This document shows, piece by piece, positions 31,289 through 58,992 of a DNA stretch of 61,040 nucleotides. The stretch is from a bacterium. GTDB taxonomy: Bacteria; Margulisbacteria; Marinamargulisbacteria; JABIPA01. Location: the NCBI GenBank assembly GCA_018699495.1, contig JABIQV010000134.1, forward strand, positions 1 to 61,040. The letters are read 5' to 3'. The translations under genes and the position numbers were made by a program. Within the stretch, counting starts at the first letter, position 1; the number at the start of each line of letters is the position of its first letter. Under the pieces are notes generated by a model. That model saw only the letters and a list, made by a program, of their open reading frames with translations, was not told the origin of the DNA and did no database searches.

Positions 31289-33598
31289 ATGACACAATCA
31301 ATTCCGATAATATGGTATCTTGCTCCAGCTTCTTCAATTTTATCACTAATCGTTGCTTACTTTTTAAGTAAAAAGCTTTTATCTGCGGATGAAGGCACGG
31401 ATAAAATGAAAGAAATCGCTGGCTACGTAAAAGATGGTGCTATGGCATACTTAAAACGGCAATATAGAGTTGTTGCGATTGTTGTTGGTATCATTTTTAT
31501 ACTTCTTGGTGTTTTAGCATTTATTGGTGTTCAACGACCCTATGTGCCAATTCTCTTTTTAAGTGGAAGTTTATGGTCAGCTGTTTGTGGTTATTTGGGA
31601 ATGAAAACGGCTACGAATGCATCTGCTCGCACCGCTCATGCGTGTAGAGATTCCTTAAATAAAGGATTAACCATCGCCTTTCGTGGTGGTGCAGTTATGG
31701 GGCTAATTGTTGTTGGATTTGCACTTCTTGATTTATCCATTTGGTTCTTTGTCCTAAATTTTGCTTACGATAGTAATTTTCTAAATTGGGGATCGAATTT
31801 AGCCTTGAAATTAGGTCAATCAAATTGGACTCCAGAGATACTATCAATGCAATCCTATAATACGGTAAAATTTTCAGAATTGACGGCAGGTTTATTAAGT
31901 TATGCGATGGGTGCATCTGTTGTTGCTCTATTTGCAAGAGTCGGTGGTGGCATTTTTACTAAGGCAGCAGATGTTGGTGCGGATTTAGTAGGTAAGGTTG
32001 AAGCTGGAATTCCAGAGGATGACCCTAGAAACCCTGCGACTATTGCTGACAATGTCGGTGATAATGTAGGCGATGTTGCTGGAATGGGCGCCGACTTATA
32101 TGAATCTTATTGTGGTTCCATTCTCGCCGCTACAGCATTGGGGGCTTCTTTAGTACTTTCTCAAAATCTTGATACAATCAACCCAATTATTATGCCAATG
32201 GTAGTGGCTGCTGGCGGGATTCTTTTTTCTCTAGTTGGTATCTTTTTTGTAAAAACAAAAGATGGAGCTAGTCAGCAATCCTTGTTGCACTCTCTTCTTA
32301 TAGGAACAGGAATATCTTCCGTTCTTACTCTTGGATTTGTTGCTTTATTGGCTTACCTAGGTTTCATGAGTTGGGGGGTGTTTGGCGCGGTTATTACTGG
32401 TTTAATTTCAGGTTTAGTTATTGGTCAAGCCACCGAGTATTATACGGCGTGTAATTTTAGTCCCGTAAAAAAAATAGTAGCAGCTAGTTTACAAGGATCT
32501 GCTACAACTATCCTTCAAGGATTTTCAACCGGAATGCTTTCATCTGGAATCCCAGTACTAGTCATTGTTGTTGCTATAATGGTGTCCTTTGGTTTAACAG
32601 GTGGATTTCACGATCTAAACCAAGGGATTTATGGAATTGCTTTTGCTGCGATTGGCATGCTATCCACATTAGGTATACAACTAGCAACTGATGCATTTGG
32701 TCCAATTGCCGATAATGCTGGCGGAAATGCTGAAATGGCCGGATTACCTAGTGATGTAAGAGAAAGAACAGATGCGTTAGATGCTCTTGGAAATACGACA
32801 GCGGCTACAGGAAAAGGGTTTGCAATTGGATCTGCAGCACTTACTGCATTAGCTCTTATTGCTGCATACTTAGATAGTATCAAGCATTGGTTAACAAAGT
32901 TAGCTGGAGACTCTACTCATTACATTGGAAACATTGGATTTACATCAAACAAGACGAATGCCAGCGAGGTCTTTAATATTAATTTCATTGAATCATTAAG
33001 TATAAAAAGTCTTGTTCAAATATTTGAAATAAATGCCGTTAATCCTAAATTTTTGGCAGGTTTATTTATCGGCGGAATGGTTGCGTTTGTATTTTGCGCA
33101 TTAACAATTATTGCTGTAGGTGATGCTGCAGGAGAAATGGTTAAAGAGGTTAGACGTCAATTTAGAGAAATTAAAGGTATATTAGAAGGAACAGCTAAAC
33201 CGGATTATGAGAGATGCATAACAATCTCCACCACAGGTGCGTTGCGAGCTATGTTATTACCATCTCTTCTCGCTATTATTACTCCGATTGTTGTCGGTCT
33301 TGTTTTTCACATTCCCGGAATTATTGGACTGTTAATGGGCGCTCTGTCGACTGGATTTGTATTAGCAATTACGTTAAACAACTCAGGTGGCGCTTGGGAC
33401 AATGCAAAAAAATATGTTGAAACTGGGCATAATGGTGGAAAAGGTACTGATAGTCATAAAGCAACAGTTGTTGGAGATACAGTAGGAGACCCTTTCAAAG
33501 ACACGGCTGGTCCTTCTCTAAATATTCTAATCAAACTTATGACTATCGTTTCTATTGTGTTTGCTGGAGTCATTCTTAAATTTGGATTTTATTTCTAA
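31289..33598 (+). CDS. hppA: Membrane-integral pyrophosphatase, K+-dependent type with a Na+-PPase-like gate signature
   Basis: 769 aa. [82 protein letters not shown] and [30 protein letters not shown]. Confidence 0.95.
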
Positions 33599-36445: not shown

Positions 36446-36450
36446 CTCAG

Positions 36451-36798: not shown

Positions 36799-38504
36799 TC
36801 CATATGCTTCAATCACTAATAGATAATATAGTAGTTTTGCCATTTTTTATTGCTCTCGTAACCGGATTGGTAGGAATCATATGGAGACGTCCTTGTACGA
36901 GCCGTCGACTATTTTTTTCAATATCTGCGGCAATACAAATGGTCTTGGCTTGGTACCTAATTTTTCTTACTCACAAAGTAAAAATACTTTTTCTTCCTCT
37001 TGGCGCATGGAAGGCTCCGTTTGGTATTTCAATTGCAATCGATGTGTTTGGGAGTCTTTTAATAGGCGTAACAACGATGTTATCCCTATTCGCCATTCTT
37101 TATCTATTTGCAACCACTAAAAAAGACAAAGAGAATTTTCTATTACTTCCATTAATTCAGTTCATGATTGCAGGCATAGTATTGTCATTTTCAACAGGAG
37201 ATTTTTTTAATCTCTTTGTATCGTTTGAAATTTTTTTAATCGCCTCTTACGGACTGCTTACTTTAAAATCTGACGAAAAAAGCATTAAAAATACCTTCCC
37301 ATATTTAGGCGTAAATGTAATTGGGGGAACCTTATTCGTTTTAGGAGCTTCGTTTATTTACGGCATGTTTGGAACCCTTAATTTTGCTGACATATCAGCT
37401 CAAACAAGTAATCTATCACAAGACCCCAAGCTAATTTTAATTGCGTCTTACTTAGTCCTAGTATTTGGAATAAAGGCTGGGTTTTTCCCGTTATTTTATT
37501 GGTTACCACGTTCTTATTCCTGTCTACCTCCTCCTCTTGCTGCTCTTTTTGCTGGGTTACTAACTAAGGTTGGAATATACGCAATTATTCGAACACTAAC
37601 TACTATATTCCCCCTAGGGTTGGTATCCATATACAGTGCTATTGGATATCTATCTATTTTTACCATGGTAATTGCTATTATAATTTCTCTCTCCCGAACC
37701 AATATCCGAGAAATTCTCTGCTATAACTTAATTAGTCACATTGGTTTTTTGATGGCTTCAATTGCTATTTTTAGCCCGATTAGTTTAACCGGTGGAATTT
37801 TTTATATGATGCACCATATGGTTGTCATTGCTTCCCTATTTTTAATAAGTGGATTGATTGTTCAACTAACGAAAACGGATGTTTTGCAAAACGCTGGAAA
37901 CGTATGGAAAACTCACGGATTTGTTGGCCTTTTATTTTTAATTCAAGCACTTTCTCTTGCAGGATTGCCTCCATTTAGTGGATTTTGGGGTAAGTTTTTA
38001 ATCCTGAGGGAAGCCATTCGATTTGACCAACTATCTCTTGCAATTGCAATTGTGCTTGCAAGTATTTTGACCCTCTTAAGTATGATAAGAATCTGGTTTC
38101 ATGTATTTCTCAAGAAAAATGAATCTTTAAAAATTGGGCCCTCCCCCAAGGGATTTAAGAGATCGACTACTGTCGTCTCAATACTAGTTTTATTTTCGCT
38201 AGCAATGGGCGTTTTTAGTAACCCATTTATTAACGCTTCAAATAAAGCCATGACCGGTTTATTAAATAAAACTAGCTATGAGAATAAAGTCCTTGTTTAT
38301 GAACAAACTCTTAAAATGATACCCGTAGATAAAAATGGTCATTCTAAACAATCGTCAGAAAAAAAACAGGTCTCTCCAATCCACAGTCATCCCGGCCAAC
38401 AAAAAACAAAAAACGGCCACCACAAAAACGAAAACTACCAATTAAAGTCTATCCCAAATACTGTTTCAAAAAAGGAGGTACTCGATGGCACTTCTGTACA
38501 TTAA
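36795..38504 (+). CDS. mrpD: Mrp antiporter subunit D (NuoM/N-like) with a hydrophilic His-rich C-terminal tail
   Basis: 569 aa. FPLFYWLPRSYSCLPPPLAALFAGLLTKVGIYAIIR. The last ~75 aa are hydrophilic (SPIHSHPGQQKTKNGHHKNENYQ). Confidence 0.88.
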   Translation: MIHMLQSLIDNIVVLPFFIALVTGLVGIIWRRPCTSRRLFFSISAAIQMVLAWYLIFLTHKVKILFLPLGAWKAPFGISIAIDVFGSLLIGVTTMLSLFAILYLFATTKKDKENFLLLPLIQFMIAGIVLSFSTGDFFNLFVSFEIFLIASYGLLTLKSDEKSIKNTFPYLGVNVIGGTLFVLGASFIYGMFGTLNFADISAQTSNLSQDPKLILIASYLVLVFGIKAGFFPLFYWLPRSYSCLPPPLAALFAGLLTKVGIYAIIRTLTTIFPLGLVSIYSAIGYLSIFTMVIAIIISLSRTNIREILCYNLISHIGFLMASIAIFSPISLTGGIFYMMHHMVVIASLFLISGLIVQLTKTDVLQNAGNVWKTHGFVGLLFLIQALSLAGLPPFSGFWGKFLILREAIRFDQLSLAIAIVLASILTLLSMIRIWFHVFLKKNESLKIGPSPKGFKRSTTVVSILVLFSLAMGVFSNPFINASNKAMTGLLNKTSYENKVLVYEQTLKMIPVDKNGHSKQSSEKKQVSPIHSHPGQQKTKNGHHKNENYQLKSIPNTVSKKEVLDGTSVH

Positions 38505-38961
38505 CTTAATTATTGCTTTCATATGGATGGCCCTATCTTCCACCCCACACCCAGAAAGTCTTGCAATTGGTTATGTTGTTGGCTTTTTAATACTAGCAAT
38601 TTTCGATCAACTTTATAAAGAAGACGCATATGTTAGAAGAACTCTGGGATTTTTAAAGTTTATCTTAATGTTTTTCAAAGCACTTGTTCTATCATCAATC
38701 CAAATTGCAAAGTGCATTATACTATTGCCAAACAACTCTATACATCCAAACTTTATCACGTTTGATGTTACAGGCATGACACCGTTTGAAATAATATTAC
38801 TCACTCACTGTATTACACTTACTCCAGGGACAACATCTGTCCTTGTAGAAGACGACTTTAAGACTATATATGTTCACGCGTTGGCAGCGGATAACCCTAA
38901 GGCAGTCAGAGACTCTATTGAAAACGACTTAAAAAAATATATTTTAGGATTTACACGATGA
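38485..38961 (+). CDS. mrpE: Mrp antiporter subunit E
   Basis: 158 aa. Size, position and the overlap with mrpD fit MrpE/MnhE. Confidence 0.75.
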   Translation: MALLYINLIIAFIWMALSSTPHPESLAIGYVVGFLILAIFDQLYKEDAYVRRTLGFLKFILMFFKALVLSSIQIAKCIILLPNNSIHPNFITFDVTGMTPFEIILLTHCITLTPGTTSVLVEDDFKTIYVHALAADNPKAVRDSIENDLKKYILGFTR

Positions 38962-39239
38962 TAGACATTTATTCACTTCTAATACTTATTCCGCTGGTCG
39001 GCCTCCTTTTTTGCCTCATCCGAATGATAAAAGGGCCTTCTGTTTTTGACAGAGTCCTCTCTTTAGATGGAATTGCTGTTTGTATCGTATCCATTATGAT
39101 TTTACTCTCCATGAAATGGAAAACTCAACTCTATCTAGATTTAATATTGGTCTTTTGTGTTCTTGGTTTTTTCAGTACCGTTGCTTTTTGTTACTATTTA
39201 GAAAAAGTTTATGTAAGCGAAAAGGAGCCAAATGACTAA
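38958..39239 (+). CDS. mrpF: Mrp antiporter subunit F
   Basis: 93 aa with 3 TM helices. Overlapping start (ATGA). Confidence 0.75.
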   Translation: MIDIYSLLILIPLVGLLFCLIRMIKGPSVFDRVLSLDGIAVCIVSIMILLSMKWKTQLYLDLILVFCVLGFFSTVAFCYYLEKVYVSEKEPND

Positions 39240-39546
39240 CACGGAACTATTTTTAACATTACTCGGGTTATCTTTTATCTTTCTGGGTTCTCTTGGGATG
39301 CTTCGTTTTCCTGATGTCTACTGCCGAGCACATGCTCTTACAAAAGCAATGACGTTTGGGATTATAAGCCTATTATTAGCGTATGCTACTTTAATAGGAT
39401 GGGATGAAGTAGGCGTAAAGATTATTGTCATTGTTTTTTTTCAATTTACAACGATTCCATTATCTGGCCATCTTTTAGGAAAAATTGCGTTTAAAAAAAA
39501 TATTTATCGATGGAAAGAAAAACCCGTAGATGACCATAGAAAGTAG
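39232..39546 (+). CDS. mrpG: Mrp antiporter subunit G
   Basis: 104 aa with 3 TM helices. LGSLGMLRFPDVYCRAHA is typical of MnhG/PhaG. Confidence 0.8.
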   Translation: MTNTELFLTLLGLSFIFLGSLGMLRFPDVYCRAHALTKAMTFGIISLLLAYATLIGWDEVGVKIIVIVFFQFTTIPLSGHLLGKIAFKKNIYRWKEKPVDDHRK

Positions 39547-41602: not shown

Positions 41603-43159
41603 ATGTATATTAAAAAAATTACTTCAGTGCCAATTCTTCGCCAACATATTGAATATTTTAACCCGGTTTCAACTAAAAAAAGACCCTATCCAAACGACAA
41701 TATACCTTCAGAAAATCCCCAAAGGTATCCTAAACCTATTCGAATATTGTTACCTTCACAGGAGCCTTTGATGTTGAGGCTTAGCCAGGGATTGTATTTA
41801 TCGTCTAACGTATGTGACTGTTTTCCCATTTTTTTCTCTATGTTACCTCTTCCAGATACGGATAGTCCAAATAAAACAAGCAAAAACATCGAAATAAAAT
41901 ACTGGGATGAGAATGAATTCTTTTATGAGGAAACCTTATCTGGAACTCCGGTACAACGTTGGATCCAATTTATTAGCAAATTTACTCCTGTCAGATATAA
42001 CACCAGAAAGACACCGGACGACACGTACCGATCAGAACAGGGAATCCCTGACGACCATATAAAGAATGGTTACCTTCAGTGTTACCTCGACATACCGTGT
42101 AATGATAATCCGGAAGAAACTCCAGAAAATTTGGAAGTTCATATTACATTCGAACATCATTCCAATAATACAGAAACGTTTTTAAACTCCGCACCAAGCT
42201 GGGCAGAAACACCATCGAACAGAAAAAAAATGCACCCAATCATTACTATTTCTGAATGGAATGAACAAAACACATCTCCCAACATAAATACATTACCAAA
42301 AGATGATCCTGAATTTCTTATTAAGTTTCGGCTCGATTCAGATTTAAGTTGTTGTGAACTTGTTAGCCTAAACAAGGGTCGCCGCCTATCCGGAAATACG
42401 TTAATGACTATTGCTTCCAAACTTACAGGGTTACTGGGGATTAATCGAACTACCTTACATGACGCATCTAAAATAGTCTTTCACTCAACTCATGGCACCG
42501 ATTCAAAAAACAAACCTACTCCCCACAAAATAGAGGTGTCATTAAGACAAATTTTGTCCTTGAAAAATGGAGCATCCTGGTATGAACGATATGGATTCAC
42601 TATTATCCCCTGCAGAAATTTTCAGGGTCCTAAATACAAAGATATTTACCAAGATCCTTATTACTATTCCATGTCGTTAGAAAGGATTAGAAAAACACCT
42701 TTATCTTGGGTAAAAACAATCTACCTGCCATGGTTGGTTGAAACAAAGAGGCTACCCCAAGGGAAAAGAAGTCAATTGAATGAACTTCTTTCTCAAACAC
42801 AATTAAATGAAAAGGCAATGGTTGAGGATCTTATACGTCTTACCCACACGAAACTGAAACGAGATTCCCTTAATCAAAGACCATGGTTAGAGATGTCTCT
42901 CGTCTTTAAAGGTTTACTTACCCACAACGAACTACGCACATCCACAGTCCATCTTGATATATTAAATTTCAATCTCGCTTTAGATATTTTCCACAGCCAC
43001 GTATTGTTTATGAAAGAAGATTCCTCAAACGCTCGCATGCTAAGTGAAAGTGAATCAAGCCCGTCTAATTTTGATAGTACACTAAAAAAACTCAGAATCC
43101 ATTCCCAGACACTTTATAAAAACTGGAAATCCCTGAGACCACACCTAAATTCAATCTAA
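41603..43159 (+). CDS. Lineage-specific 518-aa protein, unknown function (weak GNAT-like motif)
   Basis: Long intact ORF, Pro/Asn-rich N-terminal half. The central block NKGRRLSGNTLMTIASKLTGLLGI...SWYERYGF loosely resembles the GNAT acetyl-CoA-binding motif plus the YEK-GF tail. Confidence 0.6.
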   Translation: MYIKKITSVPILRQHIEYFNPVSTKKRPYPNDNIPSENPQRYPKPIRILLPSQEPLMLRLSQGLYLSSNVCDCFPIFFSMLPLPDTDSPNKTSKNIEIKYWDENEFFYEETLSGTPVQRWIQFISKFTPVRYNTRKTPDDTYRSEQGIPDDHIKNGYLQCYLDIPCNDNPEETPENLEVHITFEHHSNNTETFLNSAPSWAETPSNRKKMHPIITISEWNEQNTSPNINTLPKDDPEFLIKFRLDSDLSCCELVSLNKGRRLSGNTLMTIASKLTGLLGINRTTLHDASKIVFHSTHGTDSKNKPTPHKIEVSLRQILSLKNGASWYERYGFTIIPCRNFQGPKYKDIYQDPYYYSMSLERIRKTPLSWVKTIYLPWLVETKRLPQGKRSQLNELLSQTQLNEKAMVEDLIRLTHTKLKRDSLNQRPWLEMSLVFKGLLTHNELRTSTVHLDILNFNLALDIFHSHVLFMKEDSSNARMLSESESSPSNFDSTLKKLRIHSQTLYKNWKSLRPHLNSI

Positions 43160-43255: not shown

Positions 43256-45100
43256 TTACGATATTTTTTTCGTGCCTTGAAAACAGGGCTTATTCGATTC
43301 AATGAAGTATTCTAAGTCTTGGGTGATTTCAGAAAGTTCTTGGTACGCATATTTTCTATAGTTTGTTGTTTCCTGTACCATTTTTGGCAATAATACTTTG
43401 TAAAACTCGATCCCTTCAAATAAATTGTCTTTAAATTCAACAAAATATGATAATTTTTTCTTATCGGGGGCTATCGTCTTGACAACATCTGATTTCAAAA
43501 ATTTTACGTACATTTTTAGTTCGGCAATAAACATGTTTGATCGTGTAATATTTTGGTTTAACAAACTCAATCGTCCATAAATATGCCCGATCATTTCTTT
43601 CAAACTCGATATTTTTGAAAAATTTGCTAAATTTGGGCCAGGGCATATCGCGCTTTTAAGTGGTCTTTTATTATTAATATTTGACTCAATTAATGCACTT
43701 GCTGCTAAATCTTCACATAAACAAACCTTATCAATTACCTGTTTCGTATGAATTTGTTTTTGATCTGCATTGAGATCCATTTCTTCCAATTGAGCCAACT
43801 TCTTTCGTTGATACAATTTAGAGGCCGTACAAATCGGAACTTTGGTAAATTCAGTGTTAGATACTAGAAATCCCTTAGGACAAGGACTTCCTGGATTTCC
43901 ATTAGCGGCTCGTTCCATTTTTTGACTTTCACTGGCCGTTCCTCTAACCGTGTTAAAGGGCACTCCTAAAGGTGAAATCCCACTCAAATACAAATCTTTT
44001 CCCTCTGCATTCACTAAAAGTTGTCTTGTTTCGTCATCACAATGGGTGGCTTCAGGAACAAGAAGGAAAGGCGTCGCCCATCCCGTTTCATCCACTTGAA
44101 ATTCAGACCTTAAGAACTGGTCCTCATTAACAGTCCCTATTCCACCTTGAACGGTTACCTTGGTGAATGGTACCCCAGGAAAAGTCTGCAATTCCTTTGA
44201 TTGAAGAGCTCCATTACAAATTTTAAATAGACTTTCAAAAAGCTCGTCTTTTTTGTGTTTAAAAACATCAAGAATCGGACCTAAAAGCTTTCCTTCAGAA
44301 GGAAAAGCATGTCCCCCACAATTTAATCCAGATTCAATTCTATATTCAGAAACCCATGCGCCTTTTTTAGCCAAAAATTTTCCTTGAATTAATGATGATC
44401 TGTAATCAGAAACTTTTATGACAATTTTTTTCTTCAAGTCCCCTTCTGCATTAGGAAAAAAATCTTTGCATTTAGTAATATATGCGTAAAGCCGGCGATT
44501 AAATCCAGCCGAAAAAATAATCGACGATCGAAGTGTACTTTCGGCATATCCTTTCAATGCTGACAGAGCATCTGAAAATTCGTCTGGAAGTAAGTCACCT
44601 TTTCTCGAATAATTTTGCTTATCCAATTTTGTCATAATGTTAACATCGATTGTGCCAGGAACAACTTTCTGTCTCAACGCATTTTGCAAATTTTCTTTAT
44701 CATTGAGATCCGTGAGTCCTAACATTTTCTCATAGTCTTTTCTTAAGGGAGAGTTGTTGTCTAATAATTCAAAATATTTAGTAAGATCAGTAGATGGTGA
44801 AAACGATTCCCCTTTAATTGTTTCTATTTGGCGTTTCAATATAACGTCTACGAGATTTAAGTACCCTTTTATTCGGCACGAACGGTAATCTAATTGAGTT
44901 TTTTTAATTGGTTCGAAGGGTAACCCTGATTCTTTAGCATAAAACTCACGCATGTTTTCACACAGTTCGTCATCTCCAATGGATATAACCGAAGAAATAC
45001 CAAACTTTCCTACTTTGAGAGGCGTATCTATTGTAAAAGCCGTTCCCATTACAGGTATATAAAATGAATGTGGTTGACGATTATCTAATATTGTTTCCAT
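43256..45100 (-). CDS. Conserved-looking 614-aa protein; possibly an FMN-dependent TIM-barrel-like oxidoreductase with a Cys-containing C-terminal half
   Basis: FYIPVMGTAFTIDTPLKVGKFGISSVISIG, ESGLNCGGHAF and VTVQGGIGT resemble nitronate-monooxygenase/IMPDH-type barrel motifs. This is motif-level evidence only. Confidence 0.6.
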   Translation of the reverse strand: METILDNRQPHSFYIPVMGTAFTIDTPLKVGKFGISSVISIGDDELCENMREFYAKESGLPFEPIKKTQLDYRSCRIKGYLNLVDVILKRQIETIKGESFSPSTDLTKYFELLDNNSPLRKDYEKMLGLTDLNDKENLQNALRQKVVPGTIDVNIMTKLDKQNYSRKGDLLPDEFSDALSALKGYAESTLRSSIIFSAGFNRRLYAYITKCKDFFPNAEGDLKKKIVIKVSDYRSSLIQGKFLAKKGAWVSEYRIESGLNCGGHAFPSEGKLLGPILDVFKHKKDELFESLFKICNGALQSKELQTFPGVPFTKVTVQGGIGTVNEDQFLRSEFQVDETGWATPFLLVPEATHCDDETRQLLVNAEGKDLYLSGISPLGVPFNTVRGTASESQKMERAANGNPGSPCPKGFLVSNTEFTKVPICTASKLYQRKKLAQLEEMDLNADQKQIHTKQVIDKVCLCEDLAASALIESNINNKRPLKSAICPGPNLANFSKISSLKEMIGHIYGRLSLLNQNITRSNMFIAELKMYVKFLKSDVVKTIAPDKKKLSYFVEFKDNLFEGIEFYKVLLPKMVQETTNYRKYAYQELSEITQDLEYFIESNKPCFQGTKKIS

Positions 45101-49137: not shown

Positions 49138-49754
49138 ACCTAGAACAACGTCGTCGTTTAGTCGCATTTTCACTTTCCTTACTTATTCATATTTTCCTAC
49201 TCTCTCTCTCTCTTCCTGGACCACGCCTTAACGTAACAAAGCAAACTCCAAGAATCCCTATTATTATGACTTTAGACCAACCAAAACAAGCATCGAATGG
49301 AAAAGTTAAGTCAAATAAACAAATTGAAAAAAAGCAAAAAAAGACTAAAAAAGTTAAAATAAAGCGTCCAACAAAAAAGCTATCCACTAAGAAAAAAATT
49401 GCAAAAACGACAATCAAAAAAAAAGACCCTGAAAAAATTGTTGAAAAAATTGAACCGATTTCTCAGCCACAGCGACAACCAGGGGATAGAGACAGTCCTT
49501 CTGTTTCACAATCAACCTCTCCAGTTTATCCGAAACGCGCGCTCAATAATGATTGGACCGGTCGAATTATAATCGACGTTCTTATCGACGAACAAGGTAT
49601 TCCAATTTCTCATACTATTATAAAATCAACAGGACATGATAGTTTAGATTCGAGTTTTATTCAGACTGTCCTATCAAACTATTCATTTCACTCAAAACGT
49701 GAGTTTGGGAAAAACGTAAAAGGAAATTTAAGGCTATCTTATGACTTTGACTAA
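49134..49754 (+). CDS. tonB: TonB-family energy transducer
   Basis: 206 aa. N-terminal TM helix, Lys/Pro-rich spacer, C-terminal TonB_C-like block YPKRALNNDWTGRIIIDVLIDEQGIPISHTIIKSTGHDSLD. The start overlaps the exbD stop (ATGA). Confidence 0.88.
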   Translation: MNLEQRRRLVAFSLSLLIHIFLLSLSLPGPRLNVTKQTPRIPIIMTLDQPKQASNGKVKSNKQIEKKQKKTKKVKIKRPTKKLSTKKKIAKTTIKKKDPEKIVEKIEPISQPQRQPGDRDSPSVSQSTSPVYPKRALNNDWTGRIIIDVLIDEQGIPISHTIIKSTGHDSLDSSFIQTVLSNYSFHSKREFGKNVKGNLRLSYDFD

Positions 49755-51990
49755 ATTTAATTTATATCACGTCTGTCGTTCGATCATACAACCAGTTTCG
49801 AGATGGCTCCACTTAATCAATTCGGCTCAAAAAGCAAGGCTTCTACTCATACTTTTTCTTTTTAATTTTTCAGCATTAAAAGCTGAACTTGTTATTATTG
49901 ATACCACCCCATCTTCAACGTCGTTAACCGCTCCAAGCTCAGTCCTTCCACCCGTAATAGAAAAAAAAGACATAATGGAAGAACCCTCGACAGATGCTTC
50001 TTTAGACATTCCTAATCACCAGCATCTTTCATTGGCTGAAATTAGCTCTATAAATTCTCAAATGACCCCATCTCCATCAATAGAAACAGGAGCCTCCTTC
50101 TCAACCAAAAACAGACAATTAGCTTCTAAAAAATTGCTGAAAAAGGCTGTTGTTTTAGAAAACGAATTTATACGGATTGTCGTTAACAAAGGTCCTATTG
50201 ATGAGGGCCGATTTGCTATCGAAACAACACTCGGCGATCCCGAAAATAACGATGACGATTACCAATCTTTAATATTTGGAAAACCTATTCCTTGGACATC
50301 CTATTCAACTGTTTTTATCGATGATGCCCCGTATGTTTTCGGAGGAAAAAATAAAAAAATTCAAAAACGATCAGGATCCCATTTTAATTATGGAAAAGTA
50401 ATATCTCAACAAAAAATCGAAAATGCTATTGAAACCGTCTCATCATTTGATTCTAATATTGAAGCGAAACAACGACTATCCTTTTTTCGAAACCCTTCTA
50501 CAAAAATAAAGGACACCACTTTAATTCATTATACAATCACAAATAATGACTCTGTCACACACAATGTTGGGTTTCGTATCCTCTTAGATACAAAATTGGG
50601 CCAAAACGATGCGGCTCCTTTTAGAATGGGCCCCCATGCCATAGATTCAGAAATTCAATTTCAGTCGTCCGACCTTCAAGACTTTTGGCAAACGTTCGAT
50701 GACCTCGTCAGCCCCAATATTATCGCGCAGGGCACCTTGAATTTGCCTGAAGAAGGTATCTTCACGCCTGACCAAATCACACTTGCGAATTGGGGAACGT
50801 TAGTGGATCACCCATGGGAGATTCCATACGAAAAAGGGCGATCATTTGTACGAGAAGGGGAATTTGAACACGATACATCCTTAACGTTATTATGGAAGCC
50901 TAAACCCCTTGGACCGGGTGCATCCTTCGATTATAAAACGCTTTACGGACTAGGCGGTCTCTCCCTCCAACCCGGGGAACTTTCGCTGGGACTTACAGCT
51001 CCTGCCGAATTAATTTCTACATCTAAAAAAGAAATTTTGGTTATAGGTTATATTCTCAATTCCGGGGGATTTGACTCAAAGAACACAACGATATCATTGG
51101 TCGCCGATACCTCGTTTAAAATTGTAGAAGGCGAACAAACCATAAATATAGGGAAACTAGAAGTTGGAGATACTTATCAATCATCTTGGAAAATAGCATT
51201 AACTGGAAGAAATGGTTCTGGGACAAAAAAAATAACAATGGTGGTTACCTCGACAACCTTAGAAGGAAATCAGACCAGTCGTCAAATTGAGCTACTTCCT
51301 CCTCCTCAACTCACATCGTCTATTATGGTTGAGCCCAAAGGTAACACCTATTTTTCAGTCAATTACATCTTAAAAAATCCTACTCGATTTATATTATCAT
51401 CAATAAAAAATTCGATAACTACCTCCAAAAAACTAGTTCTTCCATGGTTCGAGTTAAACCATAAAACAATAAACAATCTTCAACCTGGAGAAACAAAAAA
51501 ATTAAATTGGATAATCAAAACCAATCAGGCTCTATCAACTGAAAAAGTAAGCATTCGTTCTGTCTCAGATATGACGCTACCAATAGTAAAACAACGTTAT
51601 ATCAAACCTACAAACGATCCCGTTATTAACTGGAAAATGTCAGTTACAGATCCGATTATTCAAAATAAATCACTCATCAGCGTTTCGTTAACTCCGCTAA
51701 ATTCAACGTCTGCGACAGCTACCTATTCCATTGACTATGACCCTACTAAATTACAGTTTTTGAGACTATCTCTTCCAGTTAATGAAACTATGGATGACAT
51801 TCTCCGTAACGTTTCACATACGACTCATTCTGTTTCTATAAAAAATCAACTAATTAACAAATCTTCGACTTCTTGGATAACTGGTCATTTCAGAGCAATC
51901 GATACCGGAAACGTGCCGCTAACTTTCAAAAAAAATGATTCTGTCGAATCCGAAATTTTAATAAAAATAATACCTCTAAAAGGAAGCTAA
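49741..51990 (+). CDS. Large secreted/envelope protein, beta-rich, unknown function
   Basis: 749 aa. Signal-peptide-like LLLILFLFNFSALKA, Ser/Thr/Pro linker, repeated CARDB/NEW3-like segments (LEVGDTYQSSWKI, LQPGETKKLNWII) and a cohesin-like C terminus (YSIDYDPTKLQFLRLS). Overlaps tonB by 14 nt. Confidence 0.7.
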   Translation: MTLTKFNLYHVCRSIIQPVSRWLHLINSAQKARLLLILFLFNFSALKAELVIIDTTPSSTSLTAPSSVLPPVIEKKDIMEEPSTDASLDIPNHQHLSLAEISSINSQMTPSPSIETGASFSTKNRQLASKKLLKKAVVLENEFIRIVVNKGPIDEGRFAIETTLGDPENNDDDYQSLIFGKPIPWTSYSTVFIDDAPYVFGGKNKKIQKRSGSHFNYGKVISQQKIENAIETVSSFDSNIEAKQRLSFFRNPSTKIKDTTLIHYTITNNDSVTHNVGFRILLDTKLGQNDAAPFRMGPHAIDSEIQFQSSDLQDFWQTFDDLVSPNIIAQGTLNLPEEGIFTPDQITLANWGTLVDHPWEIPYEKGRSFVREGEFEHDTSLTLLWKPKPLGPGASFDYKTLYGLGGLSLQPGELSLGLTAPAELISTSKKEILVIGYILNSGGFDSKNTTISLVADTSFKIVEGEQTINIGKLEVGDTYQSSWKIALTGRNGSGTKKITMVVTSTTLEGNQTSRQIELLPPPQLTSSIMVEPKGNTYFSVNYILKNPTRFILSSIKNSITTSKKLVLPWFELNHKTINNLQPGETKKLNWIIKTNQALSTEKVSIRSVSDMTLPIVKQRYIKPTNDPVINWKMSVTDPIIQNKSLISVSLTPLNSTSATATYSIDYDPTKLQFLRLSLPVNETMDDILRNVSHTTHSVSIKNQLINKSSTSWITGHFRAIDTGNVPLTFKKNDSVESEILIKIIPLKGS

Positions 51991-52726: not shown

Positions 52727-54034
52727 ATGGCTCAACGAGAAATACGTGAAATAACTGGCAAATCCATATTAAAAGGTAATTGGGAAACCTTTTTTGGTGA
52801 TAAATGGTCGTACGACTTTAACTCAGTACTCATTACAAAAAAAGACGACATCCAAGCTGTTCAAAAAACGCATCCATGGCTTCAGAAAAAAGGATTAGTT
52901 GTAAAACCTGATATGTTATTTGGTAAACGAGGAAAAAATGGACTTGTTTATATAAAAAACACAACCATTGGAGATGTAACGGCAACTGAAGCTAAACAAT
53001 GGATTGATTCAAAATCAGAAATTGAAATTGAATTATTGTCTGGTGCAAAAGGAGAACTTACTCATTTCCTTATCGAACCTTTTATTCCGCATGAACAAAA
53101 AAATGAATATTACTTAGCTGCAAAAACCGAAAAAGATATTGATATATTATACATTTCTGGTCTTGGCGGAGTCGACGTGGAAGAAAACTGGGACAAAACA
53201 GCCGAAATCAACATTCCTTTATTGGCTACAAAAGAAGAAATAGTCGCTCTCATTTCCAAAAATATTCCTTCTGAAATTGAAGACAAACAAACGGTTTCTG
53301 ATTTTGCAGCACGATTTTATTCTTTCTTTAAAACACTTCATTTTTCATATTTGGAACTTAACCCCGTAGTATTTTCGGGAACTGCCGTTCACGTTCTAGA
53401 TATGGTTGCTAGGATTGATGATACAGCTGGTTTTCTACAAGCAAAAAATTGGGGCGACGTCGATTATCCAACTGCATTTGGCATGACTGCATTAACTCAA
53501 GAAGAAAAAGATATTAAAACAATGGACGAAAACTCTGGTGCCAGCTTGAAGCTTACTCTTCTTAATCAAGAAGGACGCGTATGGACCTTGGTCGCTGGGG
53601 GTGGCGCATCCGTTGTATACGCAGACACAATTGCTGACTTATGCGGTATTAACGAAATGGCTAACTATGGCGAATACTCAGGGAACCCGTCAACCGAAGA
53701 AACATTCGAATATACAAAACGTGTTTTAGACCTCATGACTAGAAAAAAAGACCGAAAAAATAGAGCCAAAATTTTATTGATTGGTGGCGCCATTGCTAAT
53801 TTTACTGATGTCGCAAAAACATTTAATGGAATTATCCAAGCTCTCGATGCGTATCAAGAACGATGTCGAGATATTGGTATCAAAATTTATGTAAGACGTG
53901 GCGGTCCAAACTATAAAATTGGCCTTGAAAACCTTAAAAAAGCGGCGATCTCATTTGGGCTACCTATAGAAGTGTACGGCCCAGAAACACACATAACTGA
54001 AATCGTGAAGTTATCGTTAACAGAACAAAACTAG
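52727..54034 (+). CDS. aclB: ATP-citrate lyase beta (small, ATP-grasp/citrate-binding) subunit
   Basis: 435 aa. Colinear with the N-terminal third of animal ACLY (LVVKPDMLFGKRGK, FLIEPFIPH, GASLKLTLLNQEGRVWTLVAGGGASVVYADT, NYGEYSG, YVRRGGPNY). SD AAAGGAG. Confidence 0.93.
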   Translation: MAQREIREITGKSILKGNWETFFGDKWSYDFNSVLITKKDDIQAVQKTHPWLQKKGLVVKPDMLFGKRGKNGLVYIKNTTIGDVTATEAKQWIDSKSEIEIELLSGAKGELTHFLIEPFIPHEQKNEYYLAAKTEKDIDILYISGLGGVDVEENWDKTAEINIPLLATKEEIVALISKNIPSEIEDKQTVSDFAARFYSFFKTLHFSYLELNPVVFSGTAVHVLDMVARIDDTAGFLQAKNWGDVDYPTAFGMTALTQEEKDIKTMDENSGASLKLTLLNQEGRVWTLVAGGGASVVYADTIADLCGINEMANYGEYSGNPSTEETFEYTKRVLDLMTRKKDRKNRAKILLIGGAIANFTDVAKTFNGIIQALDAYQERCRDIGIKIYVRRGGPNYKIGLENLKKAAISFGLPIEVYGPETHITEIVKLSLTEQN

Positions 54035-54046
54035 AAGGAGTTTATT

Positions 54047-55906
54047 ATGTCTGCATTATTTACAAATAAAACACAAGCCATATTCTGGAATAACAACGTT
54101 AAAGCAATTCAACGCATGTTGGATTACGATTACATTTGTGGCAGAGAGAAGCCCTCTGTTTCCGCAATTGTTCATGCAACATCAGAAAACAGCTTTCAGA
54201 AGTTTTTCTTTGGAGTTCGCGAAGTTCTAGTTCCAATTTACAAATCGACAAAAGATGCTGTTGACGCACAACCCGAAGCAGATACATTTTTAAACTTTGC
54301 TTCATTTCGAACCGCATATGATGTGACTATGGAAGCTTTAGAGTTCCCTTCATTAAAAACATTAATGATTACAGCTGAAGGAATTCCTGAACGTCTTGCT
54401 CAAGAAATTAATATTCAAGCAAAAAAACTTGGCCGAACTATTATTGGTCCTGCAACTGTTGGAGCCATTACGCCAGGATGTTTTAAAGTCGCAAACATTG
54501 GCGGTTCAATTGATAACATTGTTAAAACCAAACTTCATAAAATTGGGTCCGTTGGTCTTGTCACACGATCGGGTGGCCTTTTTAACGAACTAGCAAACAT
54601 CATTTCTATTAAAGCAAACGGACTTGCTGAAGGTGTCGCTATAGGTGGAGATAGATTCCCAGGATCTAGCTATTTAGACCATATGCTGCGAATGGAGAAA
54701 AACCCTGATGTTAAATTCATGGTTTTACTTGGAGAAGTTGGTGGATCTGATGAATATGATATTATCGAAGCCAAAAAATCAGGTCAACTTACAAAACCAA
54801 TAATTGGATGGTGCATTGGAACCGTCGGTCAATATTTCCAAGGCCCTGTTCAATTTGGACACGCTGGAGCAAATGCTAACCAAGATAAAGAAAAAGCTAG
54901 CATTAAAAATGAAGAAATGAAAAAAGCTGGGATTCGCGTTCCAAAAAACTTTAATAATTTACCGGAACTAATTGAAGCGATTTATCATCGACTTCTTGCT
55001 GAAGGGACAATTGATAAAGAAACGTCAAAAAATGTACCTAATCTCCCTGAGGATTACACAGCGGCCATTAACGCTGGAAAAATTAGAAAAGAAACTAATT
55101 TTATATGTACGATTTCAGATGACCGAGGGGCCGAAGCAAACTATGCAGGTGTTCCAATTAGCCAATTAGCGATGCCTGATACCGGTTACAATATTGGTGA
55201 CGTTATATCCTTACTTTGGTTTAAAAAACGATTCCCGAAATGGACATCAGACTTCATTGAATCGGTTATTAAAACAGTAGCTGACCATGGACCTGCCGTC
55301 AGTGGAGCTCATAACGCACGTGTTTCAGCTAGAGCAGGAAAAGATTTAATATCTTCGTTATGTTCTGGAATATTAACTATAGGGCCCAAATTTGGAGGCG
55401 CTATTGATGGAGCTGCTAAATATTTTAAGTATGCACTTGATAATAATTTAGACCCACGAGAATTTGTTGCTGATATGAAAAAGAAAAATATTCCTATTCC
55501 AGGAATTGGGCATCGAATTAAATCGGTAAGAAATCCGGATAAACGTGTAGAAGAACTGAAACGATATGCTAAAGAATATTTTCCTTCTTGCGAACTTTTA
55601 AAATATGCAGAAAAAGTTGAGCAAGTAACTACTGCGAAAAAAGATACGCTTATTCTAAACGTAGACGGAACCATTGGTGTTCTTATGGTCGATATGTGGA
55701 GAAACAATGGGTACTCGGAAACAGAAATTGATGAACTTATTCGTTCTGGAACATTAAATGCCTTTTTTGTAATCGGACGGACGATAGGGTTTATTGGACA
55801 TATTCTTGATGAAAAACGACTCAATATGCCACTTTACCGCCATCAATTTGATGATATTTTGTATGACGTAAAAGAAGCTGAAGAACTGGCTCCCGTTACG
55901 AACTAA
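54047..55906 (+). CDS. aclA: ATP-citrate lyase alpha (large, CoA-ligase + citryl-CoA lyase) subunit
   Basis: 619 aa. KAIQRMLDYDYICGREKPSVSAIV, catalytic His block QFGHAGA, and a citrate-synthase-like C terminus GIGHRIKSVRNPDKRV. Confidence 0.93.
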   Translation: MSALFTNKTQAIFWNNNVKAIQRMLDYDYICGREKPSVSAIVHATSENSFQKFFFGVREVLVPIYKSTKDAVDAQPEADTFLNFASFRTAYDVTMEALEFPSLKTLMITAEGIPERLAQEINIQAKKLGRTIIGPATVGAITPGCFKVANIGGSIDNIVKTKLHKIGSVGLVTRSGGLFNELANIISIKANGLAEGVAIGGDRFPGSSYLDHMLRMEKNPDVKFMVLLGEVGGSDEYDIIEAKKSGQLTKPIIGWCIGTVGQYFQGPVQFGHAGANANQDKEKASIKNEEMKKAGIRVPKNFNNLPELIEAIYHRLLAEGTIDKETSKNVPNLPEDYTAAINAGKIRKETNFICTISDDRGAEANYAGVPISQLAMPDTGYNIGDVISLLWFKKRFPKWTSDFIESVIKTVADHGPAVSGAHNARVSARAGKDLISSLCSGILTIGPKFGGAIDGAAKYFKYALDNNLDPREFVADMKKKNIPIPGIGHRIKSVRNPDKRVEELKRYAKEYFPSCELLKYAEKVEQVTTAKKDTLILNVDGTIGVLMVDMWRNNGYSETEIDELIRSGTLNAFFVIGRTIGFIGHILDEKRLNMPLYRHQFDDILYDVKEAEELAPVTN

Positions 55907-55998
55907 ATTTGTAAAATCAATCTAGATTTGGGTAAAAAACAAGACTTGGTTTAGCTATAGGTGTCTTAAGAAAGGGCCAATATCATTGGGGGATAAGT

Positions 55999-56029
55999 CT
56001 TTCAAACTGACATCTGCTCAGTTTGAAAG
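55999..56029 (+). terminator. Perfect 12-bp hairpin ~90 nt downstream of aclA
   Basis: CTTTCAAACTGA-catctgc-TCAGTTTGAAAG. No U-tract, so it may be a terminator or an RNA stability element. Confidence 0.35.
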
Positions 56030-56233
56030 CAAACGAATAGTCACTTTTGTAGCCGCTATTCACACCTATGTTATGCTTGGGGAAATAAAGTTCTTTGGTT
56101 TGTTTCTCAACCGTTCAATATTTGAAAATAGCATTCCTCTTTTAGGATTGTTTTGCTGGCAAATACTACCATGTTTATTAAGTGTAAAAATGGGGTACTA
56201 ACTGTTATTATAAACTAAAAAATAAGGAGTCCC

Positions 56234-58540
56234 TTGCTTATGAGCGTTATCATCTTTTTTATCCCCCTTTTAATTGGATTATTTTTCTTGTTTCGTTCTT
56301 ATATGATTAATCGTACATTCAATACAAACCCCAGTGACTCGAACATAAATACCATTTACGACTCTCTCCACAAATCAAGCCGTGTTTTTTTAATTCAGCA
56401 GGGGAAAATCATAATTATCACACTCATATCCATCATTTCACTCTTAAGTATATATACCCTTTTAATCTATTTTATAAGACCCGATGACGATCTATTACAT
56501 TCTTTCATTTTATTTACACTCACATTCGTATTAGGTGCTTTTTTATCCTGGATTGCAGGGTTCAAAGCTATCCAACAATCCACAGGGTCACTAGGTCGTT
56601 TGATTGGCTCTCTCTCTCAAGATTACCTAAACCCTACAAAACTAAAGCAATTGGGGCTTAGTATCTCAATGACCGTTTTTGGTCAGGCTCTCATTCATTT
56701 AACACTCTTATATTTAATAATGGATGTTATCTACTCCCCTCACTTTTTAGGCCTATTTGCCCAACTCGATTGGCCATTATTAAATGAGCTAATCGCATCG
56801 GACCTAAAAGGGCCTACCTACCTCCATTTAAGTTTCATTGGACTGGGGTACTGTTTAGGAACCTCCTCACAAGCTCTTTTTACGACGGTTGGGGGTAGCA
56901 TATTTGCTAAAACCAATGACATATCGGCCGATCTTCTAGGTCAACTTGATTTTAACGTAGATAAACATAATTTATCCAACCCATCTATTATCGCAAGTTA
57001 TGTCGGCAACCATATCAAAAATGTATTTAGCTATGCGGTTAATATGTATGAATCCTATATTTTTACTATCATTATATTAACCTTATTCATTGCAGGAAAT
57101 CTTCATTATAATGAAGAGATTGGTTCTTCTTATTATTTATTTTCCCCCTTATTGATATCCGCACTTGGTGTATTGATTTCCATGATCGTAGCCCAGCTAA
57201 CGAAATCTAATAAGCTCCATACTCAAAGGCACTATATGGTAAATATAATCTGTTCAAGCCTTTTAATTGGGTTAGTTAGTAGTTGTTTAGTGCCATTAGG
57301 GGTCTTTTCGACAAATATACTGATTAGTATTTGGGTAGGTCTGGGATTAGGCCTGATTATTGCAGCGAATTCTACTTGGCAGCAGTCCGGTCCATTGGGC
57401 CCTACCAAAACTGTATTAGAGCAGACCCAAATCAGTGTCCTTAACGGCATAACATCAGGAATGTCCAGGGGAATCCTAGCCACTATTATTCCTATTATTG
57501 CAACACTCTCATGTATCGCTTTTTGCTTTATTCATTCGGGAGGTGTGCATGCCTTCTGGCCCGCCTTATCGAGTGTAGGATGGGTATCTCTCGGTTGTGT
57601 TTCAGTAACCATGTCAAAATTTATTATCGGATCGACAACGGCAGCTACTGATATTGCCTACGGTATCGCTCAAATAACCGACGCCCCAAGCACATTTCAA
57701 AACGACACGTTCTCAGCCAACAAAATCGGAAATATCGGCCAAGTAAATATCAACATAGATTCCTTAGTTAACACATTTTTAATAGCCACATTGCTCATTG
57801 TTGTGTATATGGACTTTATTTGGTGGCGACTATTCAAAAATTGTCAATCTGCCATTTATTTTGTAGGTGATATTGGCTTTACCGTAATAGAGTCACTTGT
57901 AAACGAAGCCAATAACATCCATATGATAGTGGACATCCCATATCGGAAACTACTCAACTTATTTAATGCTGATATGTTAAATCCTGAACTCATCATCGGG
58001 CTATTAATTGGTTCTTTTCTACCCTTTGTTTTTATGGCAATTATCTTAATGGCAATTGAATGTGGCCTTAAAAAGGTCAGCCAAAGCATGCACGAACAGC
58101 TCACTCAAAACACGAGTATTCTGAATGGTTCTGGGGTACCTGACTACTATCAAGTGATCTTGATTTCACTTAAAAATGCTATGAAGTGGCTAATTTTTCC
58201 AGGAATCATCACTATCCTCCTCCCTATCTTCTCTTCAATTCTGTTCGGTATTTCAGGGAGTATCGGCCTCATTATGGGATCTTTAGTCAGTAGCTTTATA
58301 TTAGGTGCTTATTTAATCCATTCGGGAAATTTATGGCAACAAACAAACCGATTACTCGAACACCAAAGGCAAGGCCAGGAATTAAGCGCTACTTACATTT
58401 CCGCGATAGTGGGTAATGCCTTAGGAAACATTCTCAAGGATAGTGTCGGATTCTCACTTAGTATTCTAATCAAAATGACGTTATTAATATTAATTTTTAC
58501 CTCCTATTTAGCGATCATATTCGAAAGCCTAATGCAATGA
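56234..58540 (+). CDS. Divergent membrane-pyrophosphatase paralog lacking most PPi/Mg-binding aspartates (putative pseudo-enzyme)
   Basis: 768 aa. Full-length by-eye colinearity with hppA at 31289, but DNVGDNVGD is [19 protein letters not shown] is GNALGNILKD and GGAWDNAKK is GNLWQQTNR. The likelier start is ATG 56240, 10 nt after AAGGAG (56224..56229). Confidence 0.8.
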   Translation: MLMSVIIFFIPLLIGLFFLFRSYMINRTFNTNPSDSNINTIYDSLHKSSRVFLIQQGKIIIITLISIISLLSIYTLLIYFIRPDDDLLHSFILFTLTFVLGAFLSWIAGFKAIQQSTGSLGRLIGSLSQDYLNPTKLKQLGLSISMTVFGQALIHLTLLYLIMDVIYSPHFLGLFAQLDWPLLNELIASDLKGPTYLHLSFIGLGYCLGTSSQALFTTVGGSIFAKTNDISADLLGQLDFNVDKHNLSNPSIIASYVGNHIKNVFSYAVNMYESYIFTIIILTLFIAGNLHYNEEIGSSYYLFSPLLISALGVLISMIVAQLTKSNKLHTQRHYMVNIICSSLLIGLVSSCLVPLGVFSTNILISIWVGLGLGLIIAANSTWQQSGPLGPTKTVLEQTQISVLNGITSGMSRGILATIIPIIATLSCIAFCFIHSGGVHAFWPALSSVGWVSLGCVSVTMSKFIIGSTTAATDIAYGIAQITDAPSTFQNDTFSANKIGNIGQVNINIDSLVNTFLIATLLIVVYMDFIWWRLFKNCQSAIYFVGDIGFTVIESLVNEANNIHMIVDIPYRKLLNLFNADMLNPELIIGLLIGSFLPFVFMAIILMAIECGLKKVSQSMHEQLTQNTSILNGSGVPDYYQVILISLKNAMKWLIFPGIITILLPIFSSILFGISGSIGLIMGSLVSSFILGAYLIHSGNLWQQTNRLLEHQRQGQELSATYISAIVGNALGNILKDSVGFSLSILIKMTLLILIFTSYLAIIFESLMQ

Positions 58541-58992
58541 TTACCCATGCCACACCCCCCCCTTTTGGATTAAAACCCATGATATTGTCGGATGTTTTTA
58601 TTACCCGGTGTCAATCCGTTCAACCCCCTTTTTTTACTGAGTCCGGGAGCGACGACGTTAACTTGATCCCGTTTATAACTGAGATTAAATCTTTATTGGA
58701 CAACAAATATTCCAAAATCCAACTCACCTACAACCCGTCAACAGAAAGGCAAACCCATATCCTGTGCAAAGTGAATCTAGCCACCATTATAATCGAAGAA
58801 AAAAAATCGATTAAATACAGAACCTTTATTTATGATCTAAAAACACGACTATTAACCATTAACAACCGACCGTCAACTCGAGAAATGCAAGTAAAGTTTT
58901 TAGCCAAAGCACAATGGTTTATCAGCCAAATAGATAATCCAAAAATGACGGTTGCTGGCATCGTAGAAGGAGACTCTAATGATAGAATCTAG
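58537..58992 (+). CDS. 151-aa protein of unknown function, translationally coupled on both sides
   Basis: The ATG overlaps the TGA of the PPase paralog (ATGA). The stop lies 14 nt inside the next ORF. No recognisable motif. Confidence 0.6.
   Translation: MITHATPPPFGLKPMILSDVFITRCQSVQPPFFTESGSDDVNLIPFITEIKSLLDNKYSKIQLTYNPSTERQTHILCKVNLATIIIEEKKSIKYRTFIYDLKTRLLTINNRPSTREMQVKFLAKAQWFISQIDNPKMTVAGIVEGDSNDRI

Follow-up and report, generated by a model that had tools for sequence, protein, structure and literature searches.

Why would a bacterium keep a full-length membrane-bound pyrophosphatase (M-PPase) in which most of the residues that bind and hydrolyse pyrophosphate (PPi) are replaced? The question is raised by a gene at 56240..58540 on the forward strand of contig JABIQV010000134.1 (GenBank assembly GCA_018699495.1), from a member of the Marinamargulisbacteria. 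The whole stretch of 61,040 nucleotides was analysed and is referred to here as the window; the protein encoded by the gene is P0001. The answer that we favour, with a probability of about 0.6, is that P0001 is a non-catalytic membrane pseudoenzyme and the membrane partner of a three-gene module. This answer draws on the pattern of residue loss in P0001, on a family of similarly degenerate relatives, and on two genes that follow the pump-like gene.

Hydrolytic centre, ion gate and predicted fold

P0001 matched the Pfam H_PPase profile (PF03030) with E = 2.8e-80 and 271.2 bits against a cut-off of 29.7, its residues 19-752 covering profile positions 5-641 of 645. The canonical HppA of the same genome (769 amino acids; 31289..33598, forward strand) scored 860 bits, has the canonical residue at all 33 positions tabulated below, and served as comparator. 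BLASTP aligned P0001 with HppA end to end (26% identity over 751 columns, E = 2e-72). The resemblance to M-PPases is far beyond chance, and the gene coordinates are right. P0001 fell below all 12 cut-offs of the NCBIfam M-PPase equivalogs (546-1321 bits), its best score being 271.8 bits against 546 for NF001960; HppA exceeded the cut-offs of NF001954 (945 against 894), NF001960 and TIGR01104, and is likely to represent the parental type of P0001.

An AlphaFold2 model of P0001, built from a 60-sequence alignment, contains the expected helices (predicted local distance difference test score, pLDDT, 87.6; predicted template modelling score, pTM, 0.90). Foldseek comparison of the model with the PDB returned 36 M-PPase chains at E <= 1e-18, with TM-scores of 0.70-0.86, and no non-M-PPase match below E = 1e-3. 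TM-scores against 6AFX, 4A01 and 5LZQ, from Vigna radiata and Thermotoga maritima, were 0.80-0.84. The best matches were to the V. radiata H+-PPase (PDB 4A01, 6AFS-6AFZ; E = 1e-25, root-mean-square deviation 3.5-3.8 A), which is 20-21% identical to P0001 and from which P0001 differs in having its Glu at 6.53, not 6.57. By sequence and predicted structure, P0001 is a full-length 16-helix M-PPase homologue, in agreement with an earlier sequence-only reading of the locus, which had described a full-length paralog. That reading had given the product as 768 amino acids. An alternative in-frame TTG lies at 56234, but the ortholog P0061, described below, begins at the Met equivalent to the ATG at 56240, and the Shine-Dalgarno sequence is placed before that same ATG (AAGGAG at 56224..56229, forward strand, 10 nt upstream). 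The product is therefore 766 amino acids long.

Catalytic and gate positions are numbered as in V. radiata, by reference to the phmmer alignment with 4A01/6AFY and to the motifs of the canonical HppA. Our table of 33 positions covers the hydrolytic centre, the coupling funnel and the ion gate; it was drawn up from two MAFFT alignments (153 and 60 sequences), from BLASTP and from phmmer against V. radiata 4A01, whose assignments were concordant at the positions compared. P0001 retains 11 of the 33: K250 (5.58), D253 (5.61), D257 (5.65), N273, E6.53, S6.54, D507, N534, K730 (16.38), D731 (16.39) and K742 (16.50). The replacements are R242T, K261Q, E268K, D269H, D270N, R272S, D279S, D283N, D287N (6.43), D294N (6.50), D500G, N508I, A537Q, K541N (12.50), D691Q, N692Q, K694N, K695R, D723N, D727N and N738S, with E263 changed to Asp.

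In characterised M-PPases, D6.43 acts together with D16.39 to activate the water nucleophile, and in the resting state it is held by K12.50; phosphate is contacted by K5.58 and K16.38 (PMC5150537, Li et al. 2016). The Na+ site consists of D6.50, E6.53, S6.54 and D/N16.46, and K16.50 pairs with E6.53 (PMC5150537). The general-base pair is incomplete in P0001: D6.43 is N261 (codon 57020..57022, forward strand, like the codons that follow) and D16.39 is kept as D734. The acidic cluster that binds Mg2+ and PPi comprises 12 positions, of which P0001 keeps D253, D257 and D507 only; the other nine (E268, D269, D270, D279, D283, D500, D691, D723 and D727) are K, H, N, S, N, G, Q, N and N, respectively. 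The helix-15 Asp, D691 of the GGAWDNAKK motif, corresponds to Q700 (58337..58339). Two of the four PPi-contacting lysines remain, K5.58 and K16.38; at the positions of K12.50 and K694 P0001 has N505 and N703. Read with the published roles, the table therefore indicates that P0001 has lost the general base, most of the metal ligands and half of the lysines that bind phosphate. In the gate and coupling funnel three of six residues are retained, E271 and S272 at 6.53 and 6.54 (57050..57055) and K745 at 16.50; the other three are replaced, R5.50 by T, D6.50 by N and the residue at 16.46 by S. The helix-16 segment at 58436..58474 holds K745 together with K733-D734, at 16.38 and 16.39.

The sequence-only reading had reported that the Mg2-PPi-binding residues are replaced, which the alignments bear out for nine of the twelve cluster positions, and that the helix-5 K/D/D, the helix-6 Glu-Ser and the helix-16 KD are retained, which they confirm. 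Five of its six motif pairs were in register. The sixth, from helix 11 (paired with DIAYGIAQITDA in P0001), was shifted by 7 residues; all four alignments pair D471 of P0001 with V. radiata D507, so that the helix-11 Asp is retained in P0001, and it is Lys in P0061. No alignment placed an Asp at D6.43 or D691. On this residue pattern, P0001 very probably does not hydrolyse PPi and would not be a PPi-driven pump.

With the K+-dependent Na+-translocating M-PPases (TmPPase, PDB 4AV3/5LZQ; NF001954/NF001960), the type to which HppA of this genome belongs, P0001 shares the full-length Pfam family and the predicted fold. Its Glu 6.53 is in register with that of HppA (MYESY and LYESY), and the long periplasmic 12-13 loop (Y-x-G-x-x-G-F-T) is common to P0001 and the canonical HppA of the lineage. 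Unlike these pumps, P0001 has lost D6.43, D6.35, D6.39, D6.50, K12.50, D691, K694, D16.31 and D16.35, and it has Gln at the K+ determinant A12.46. The two operons also differ. A complete Mrp (MnhA-G) cation/proton antiporter operon lies directly 3' of the Na+-PPase-type hppA (window 31289-39500), an order kept in the sister genome described below, and suggests a coupled Na+ cycle; the operon of P0001 has no Mrp genes.

A maintained family with apparently displaced constraint

P0001 was used in an exhaustive phmmer search of 1.84 billion cluster representatives. Its own 90% cluster holds a copy from a Logan metagenome (L001) and an ENA fragment. The closest ortholog, P0061, is a 764-amino-acid hypothetical protein from a Candidatus Marinamargulisbacteria single-cell genome; it is 45% identical to P0001 (E = 1e-208), with just two single-residue gaps over 766 columns. 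Further degenerate relatives of about 680-770 amino acids are P0062, P0063, P0071, P0160, P0144, P0078, P0074 and P0183. The family thus comprises at least ten degenerate proteins, to which all counts out of ten refer, and these ten formed one clade in 196 of 200 bootstraps of a neighbour-joining tree with 36 canonical pumps. Named members are from Candidatus Marinamargulisbacteria, as is the named record of the gene adjoining P0063; the others lie on unclassified metagenomic contigs.

Only the exhaustive search recovered the family. A word-index protein search with P0001 returned itself and canonical pumps, and one with an eight-member family profile was swamped by canonical pumps. A scan of genome contigs with the P0001 and P0061 alignment gave no match, either because neither genome is a species representative or because the patterns were too narrow, and a metagenome scan found canonical pumps only (L006-L008). 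JGI and NCBI label P0063, P0144, P0183 and P0342 as 'K(+)-stimulated pyrophosphate-energized sodium pump'. For degenerate members this label is probably a misannotation, because catalytic residues are missing.

Loss of the hydrolytic centre extends through the family. D691 and D500 are kept in none of the ten members, D287 (6.43) in one, N738 (16.46) in one and D294 (6.50) in two. N273 and P274 are kept in all ten, D731 (16.39) in nine with Glu in the tenth, E6.53 in eight, K742 (16.50) in seven with Arg in two more, and S6.54 in three. The number of canonical positions retained, out of 34, falls from 27 in P0062 to 17 in P0071 and P0160 and 8-11 in P0144, P0061, P0001 and P0063, a gradient that fits early catalytic loss followed by progressive erosion. 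The members also share conserved residues that are absent from canonical pumps, namely W650, Q648, L633 and L245; W650, L633 and L245 are on the cytoplasmic side. Other M-PPase homologues outside the clade of ten, P0065, P0135, P0143 and P0170 among them, also lack several catalytic residues and keep 16-21 of the 34 positions; the M-PPase superfamily may thus have seen more than one origin of partial degeneracy.

The sequence-only reading had suggested that P0001 keeps an ion-conducting or sensing role. As stated this was not supported, since only E6.53, S6.54 and K16.50 are left of the gate and funnel. A protein that no longer hydrolyses PPi might nevertheless act as a passive or gated Na+/H+ conductor, or sense ions or membrane potential and possibly signal to the downstream proteins. 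Retention of E6.53, S6.54, K16.50, K16.38 and D16.39 in P0001, the family-wide counts at 6.53, 16.39 and 16.50, and the membrane parts of inner-ring helices 5, 6, 12, 15 and 16, which are the best conserved between P0001 and P0061, would all agree with such a role. However, D6.50 and 16.46 of the Na+ site are replaced in P0001, as is R5.50, and the counts at 6.50, 6.54 and 16.46 are low throughout the family. The canonical gate, moreover, opens only via substrate-driven movement of transmembrane helix (TM) 12 (PMC5150537), and the substrate site is gone. The retained pair E6.53-K16.50 could just as well serve the structure as a buried salt bridge and may persist simply for that. We consider an ion path unlikely.

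P0001 could alternatively be a recently inactivated gene heading for loss, with a reading frame open by chance. The massive loss of catalytic residues would be expected of a pseudogene, as would the absence of the cassette at this locus in a sister species (see below). The differences between the window and L001 speak otherwise. The P0001 gene has 6 synonymous and 4 non-synonymous differences, a ratio of non-synonymous to synonymous substitution rates (dN/dS) of about 0.2 that is based on just these 10 differences. The upstream aclA has 10 and 1 (dN/dS 0.03); the small downstream gene has 3 and 5, also low counts (0.47); and the large downstream gene has 20.5 and 49.5 (0.72), together with several in-frame indels. 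Full-length open reading frames (ORFs) are intact in ten lineages at 17-46% mutual identity, the alignment with P0061 is nearly gapless, the fold is confidently predicted, and both new family-specific residues and conserved operon partners are present. A decaying pseudogene is effectively refuted by these observations. From the sequence comparisons, the P0001 gene is under purifying selection, as the sequence-only reading had supposed in calling the ORF maintained; intact orthologs were found, with substitutions of the same class.

We compared the distribution of constraint by segment in a canonical pair, HppA and P0067 (55% identical overall), and in the degenerate pair P0001 and P0061 (45% overall). 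The segments that make up the hydrolytic centre are the best conserved in the canonical pumps and average or worst in the degenerate pair. Identity in the cytoplasmic parts of TM5-6 is 98% in the canonical pair and 48% in the degenerate pair; in TM15-16 the values are 72% and 44%, and in TM11-12, the least conserved part of the degenerate protein, 80% and 24%. The reverse is seen for the membrane part of TM15 (33% and 81%), TM13 (48% and 62%) and the periplasmic 12-13 loop (12% and 51%). Constraint thus appears to have shifted away from the hydrolytic centre, towards the membrane parts of TM13 and TM15, towards TM16 and towards the 12-13 loop, which is what a functional change with catalytic loss would look like. 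TM15 contributes to the dimer interface of M-PPases. TM13 contributes to it in the solved structures (PMC5150537), and P0001 probably still dimerises through TM13 and TM15. A cytoplasmic docking face was also considered and rejected; cytoplasmic segments are not more conserved than the membrane regions, and the backing for it consisted of the three family-specific hydrophobic residues.

The same comparison bears on whether P0001 might still be an active enzyme or pump with a remodelled site, acting on PPi or another phosphoanhydride with Asn, Gln or His as ligands or with another metal. K5.58, D5.61, D5.65, D507, K16.38 and D16.39 do remain, and the funnel architecture is predicted to be intact. 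Ten of the 15 acidic centre residues are replaced, however, including the general base D6.43 and D691. P0061 is more degenerate still (9 of 34 positions kept) and has K at D253 (5.61), E at D257 (5.65) and K at D507, so the residues left in the centre of P0001 are not conserved. The low identity of the TM11-12 centre segment likewise counts against activity, and a remodelled enzyme is very improbable.

The three-gene cassette and its distribution

Two ORFs follow the P0001 gene on the forward strand. The first (58537..58992) encodes a small protein of 151 amino acids, and its ATG overlaps the stop codon of the P0001 gene (ATGA). The second (58979..61040) overlaps the first by 14 nt and is the 5' part of a large ORF of at least 687 codons that runs off the contig end; its translation is hydrophilic, with a two-lobed hydrophobic stretch in the hydropathy profile at about residues 92-128.

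When the contigs of nine family members were examined, the order degenerate pump, small gene, large gene was found in eight, the large gene of P0063 not being seen as its contig ends. The gaps between the genes range from -14 to +82 nt. The small and large proteins are respectively 151 and at least 687 amino acids in the window and L001, 136 and 777 for P0061 (L005), 138 and at least 808 for P0062 (L089), 102 and 519 for P0071 (L092, L097), 143 and at least 588 for P0160 (L095), 145 and at least 225 for P0144, and 142 and at least 863 for P0074 (L096); the small protein of P0063 (L090) has at least 129 residues and is cut by the contig end. On L097 the complete unit consists of exactly three genes, between the housekeeping genes ilvBN and hemE, and the genes flanking the cassette differ at every locus. 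The ninth member, P0078 (L093 8001-10310, L094 2192-4501), keeps 15 of 34 canonical positions and lies between a gene of the inositol-monophosphatase family and miaA, with neither small nor large gene; it may reflect a functional state that differs from that of the other members.

The small proteins belong to a single family. The window and L005 copies are 43% identical, and the others are connected by transitive BLASTP matches (E = 1e-4 to 1e-14). A hidden Markov model (HMM) of the family, searched against the 4957 ORFs of all the DNA fetched, matched only 3' of degenerate M-PPases and gave no match beside canonical hppA genes. Neither the small nor the large protein had a significant match in Pfam, NCBIfam or PADLOC, and weak matches to DUF5398, HEC-01A and RP198 were treated as chance. 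The AlphaFold2 model of the small protein had a pLDDT of 66.6, with core residues 40-145 at 70-87, and an alpha-beta5-alpha-beta arrangement.

The third genes are variable. Between the window and L001 (58979-61040 against 4162-6003) the encoded proteins are 89% identical, with in-frame indels in the first 130 codons, in strains that are otherwise 97-99% identical. This suggests that the N-terminal part of the third gene is under diversifying or relaxed selection. Two-lobed hydrophobic stretches are present in the third genes of the window and L097 and in none of the others. A SopB/IpgD-like phosphoinositide phosphatase was considered for the third gene of L005 (2781-5114, 777 amino acids) on a C-terminal CMSGKDRTG (CX5R) seen by eye; it found no support in Pfam or the PDB and was not retained.

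Functional linkage of the degenerate pump to its two downstream genes is quite likely. The sequence-only reading overlooked what is most informative about the locus: a small downstream gene that is conserved, a large one that varies, and a sister species in which the cassette is absent.

That absence was seen in the sister metagenome-assembled genome (MAG) SI072_bin107 (GCA_018698675.1), which has about 80-85% nucleotide identity to the window and is syntenic over 44-56 kb and 21-41 kb. Its nucleotide synteny stops at the aclA stop codon (the blastn alignment of L009 to the window ends at 55891), placing the left cassette boundary at 55907..56239. At loci L009 and L035, in the sister MAG and the Marinamargulisbacteria single-cell genome AAA071-K20, a holB-like gene lies directly 3' of aclA. 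One species thus has the cassette, and its relatives lack it at that site. Neither integrases nor transposases were seen in the vicinity of any cassette, and a scan of viral contigs found no cassette and hence no sign of a phage-borne element. A promoter and terminator scan of 55800-59200 gave fewer sites than shuffled sequence. The non-syntenic spacer contains a perfect 11-bp inverted repeat, CTTTCAAACTG-N9-CAGTTTGAAAG, at 55999-56029, 93 nt 3' of the aclA stop and with no T-run after it.

The distribution also bears on the idea that P0001 is a regulatory subunit which heterodimerises with canonical HppA, modulating or silencing it. M-PPases are dimers, and the genome also has a canonical hppA. 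In the degenerate protein TM13 and TM15 are conserved more strongly than the other helices, one of them in the published interface (PMC5150537), and the TM15 and TM16 segments are the most HppA-like (48% and 44% identity, against 24% overall). A heterodimer leaves the conserved small and large genes unexplained, however. The P0001 gene lies 23 kb from hppA, the two are co-localised at no locus seen, and the sister species has hppA without the paralog at this locus. We regard this explanation as quite improbable.

Other features of the window were noted. ATP-citrate lyase genes aclB/aclA occupy 52727-55906; beyond the sister MAG their closest homologues among species representatives are from Campylobacterota (about 70%) and Chlamydiae MAGs (about 69%), just ahead of a Marinamargulisbacteria single-cell genome (67%), a distribution that may reflect horizontal transfer. 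Four large ORFs have no Pfam match: 15502-18678 (reverse strand, 1058 amino acids), 41603-43159 (forward, 518), 43256-45100 (reverse, 614) and 49741-51990 (forward, 749). Synteny with the sister MAG degrades in the 41.3-43 kb stretch. The window also carries alternative complex III and an A-type oxidase, both described for Marinamargulisbacteria (PMC6349859). These genes, the single-cell genome that yielded P0061, the named neighbour of P0063 and the aclA-holB synteny with AAA071-K20 all favour placing the DNA in that lineage.

A proposed membrane pseudoenzyme and its putative partners

An old pump has probably been reused for a new job. We propose that a Na+-PPase-type hppA was duplicated and that catalysis was lost early, D6.43, D500 and D691 being gone almost family-wide. 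The scaffold would then have been kept as a membrane-embedded platform, anchor or receptor, probably still dimeric, which would partner the small protein encoded alongside it and, by way of that protein, the variable large one. The choice of a scaffold or anchor role over an ion-related one is tentative, and we hold it at rather less than even odds.

Several observations weigh against this proposal. The neighbour-joining clade of ten could be inflated by long-branch attraction, and the dN/dS of P0001 comes from few differences. Retention of 27 of 34 positions in the cassette-linked P0062 means that some members might keep partial activity, and P0078, which has no small gene, indicates that the pump-like protein can exist alone. 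Cytoplasmic regions of the degenerate protein are 41% conserved, against 47% for the TM regions. The model of the small protein had no structural match in the PDB by Foldseek (best E = 0.17, TM-score about 0.2), and the third genes of different cassettes have no detectable similarity to one another. An N-terminal targeting motif common to the third genes, with a polar leader ahead of a basic amphipathic helix at about residues 40-65, looked plausible by eye; it was rejected because leave-one-out HMMs of the first 90 residues never recovered the left-out protein among the 4957 ORFs. Finally, physical interaction among the module proteins is presumed from gene order, and the inactivity of P0001 is deduced from its sequence.

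Known systems offer partial parallels. iRhoms are inactive rhomboid proteases that act as scaffolds or regulators of client proteins. By analogy, P0001 would likewise have kept a multi-pass membrane enzyme fold after catalytic loss and would act through partners. The two differ in fold and lineage, and partner binding, demonstrated for iRhoms, is for P0001 a reading of gene order. The two downstream genes resemble the chaperone-effector pairs of type III secretion systems (T3SS), in which a small alpha/beta protein of 100-150 residues is likewise encoded directly 5' of a large, fast-evolving hydrophilic protein without a signal peptide; two-lobed hydrophobic stretches like those of some third genes are found in chlamydial Inc proteins. 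An intracellular way of life is also represented in the Marinamargulisbacteria, by the Trichoplax symbiont Ca. Ruthmannia eludens (PMC6784892). The cassette differs from the T3SS pairs in that no PDB chaperone was among the Foldseek matches of the small protein and no common N-terminal signal was detectable in the third genes. On the same Foldseek values, identity of the small protein as a T3SS class I chaperone was not supported. No T3SS genes were found in the window, which is the 61 kb of the genome that was available, or in the other DNA examined, and we know of no T3SS locus that includes an M-PPase homologue.

A bolder version of the proposal is that the cassette is an unrecognised membrane machine of Marinamargulisbacteria, in which the stripped M-PPase scaffold and the small protein as adaptor would insert, anchor or export large, fast-diversifying 'cargo' proteins. 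The scaffold might sense the Na+/H+ gradient through E6.53-K16.50, and the cargo would possibly be directed at hosts or competitors. We consider such a machine distinctly unlikely; if it did exist, an ion pump would have given rise to a new module for protein targeting or effector presentation.

M-PPases are regarded as primary ion pumps that are catalytic throughout the family. The literature searched, including a 2024 review, contained no description of a conserved non-catalytic or catalytically dead M-PPase branch, and the words inactive, paralog, non-catalytic and degenerate are absent from that review of microbial PPases. The P0001 clade would be the first M-PPase lineage made up of pseudoenzymes, and its conserved partners suggest a new function. 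The clade also serves as a natural experiment that can show what in the M-PPase scaffold is important beyond catalysis, namely TM13, TM15, the salt bridge of the gate and the 12-13 loop. For the Marinamargulisbacteria, a barely known lineage sibling to Cyanobacteria, misannotation of these proteins as sodium pumps would distort metabolic reconstructions, and the variable third genes may constitute a pool from which secreted or surface proteins are drawn.

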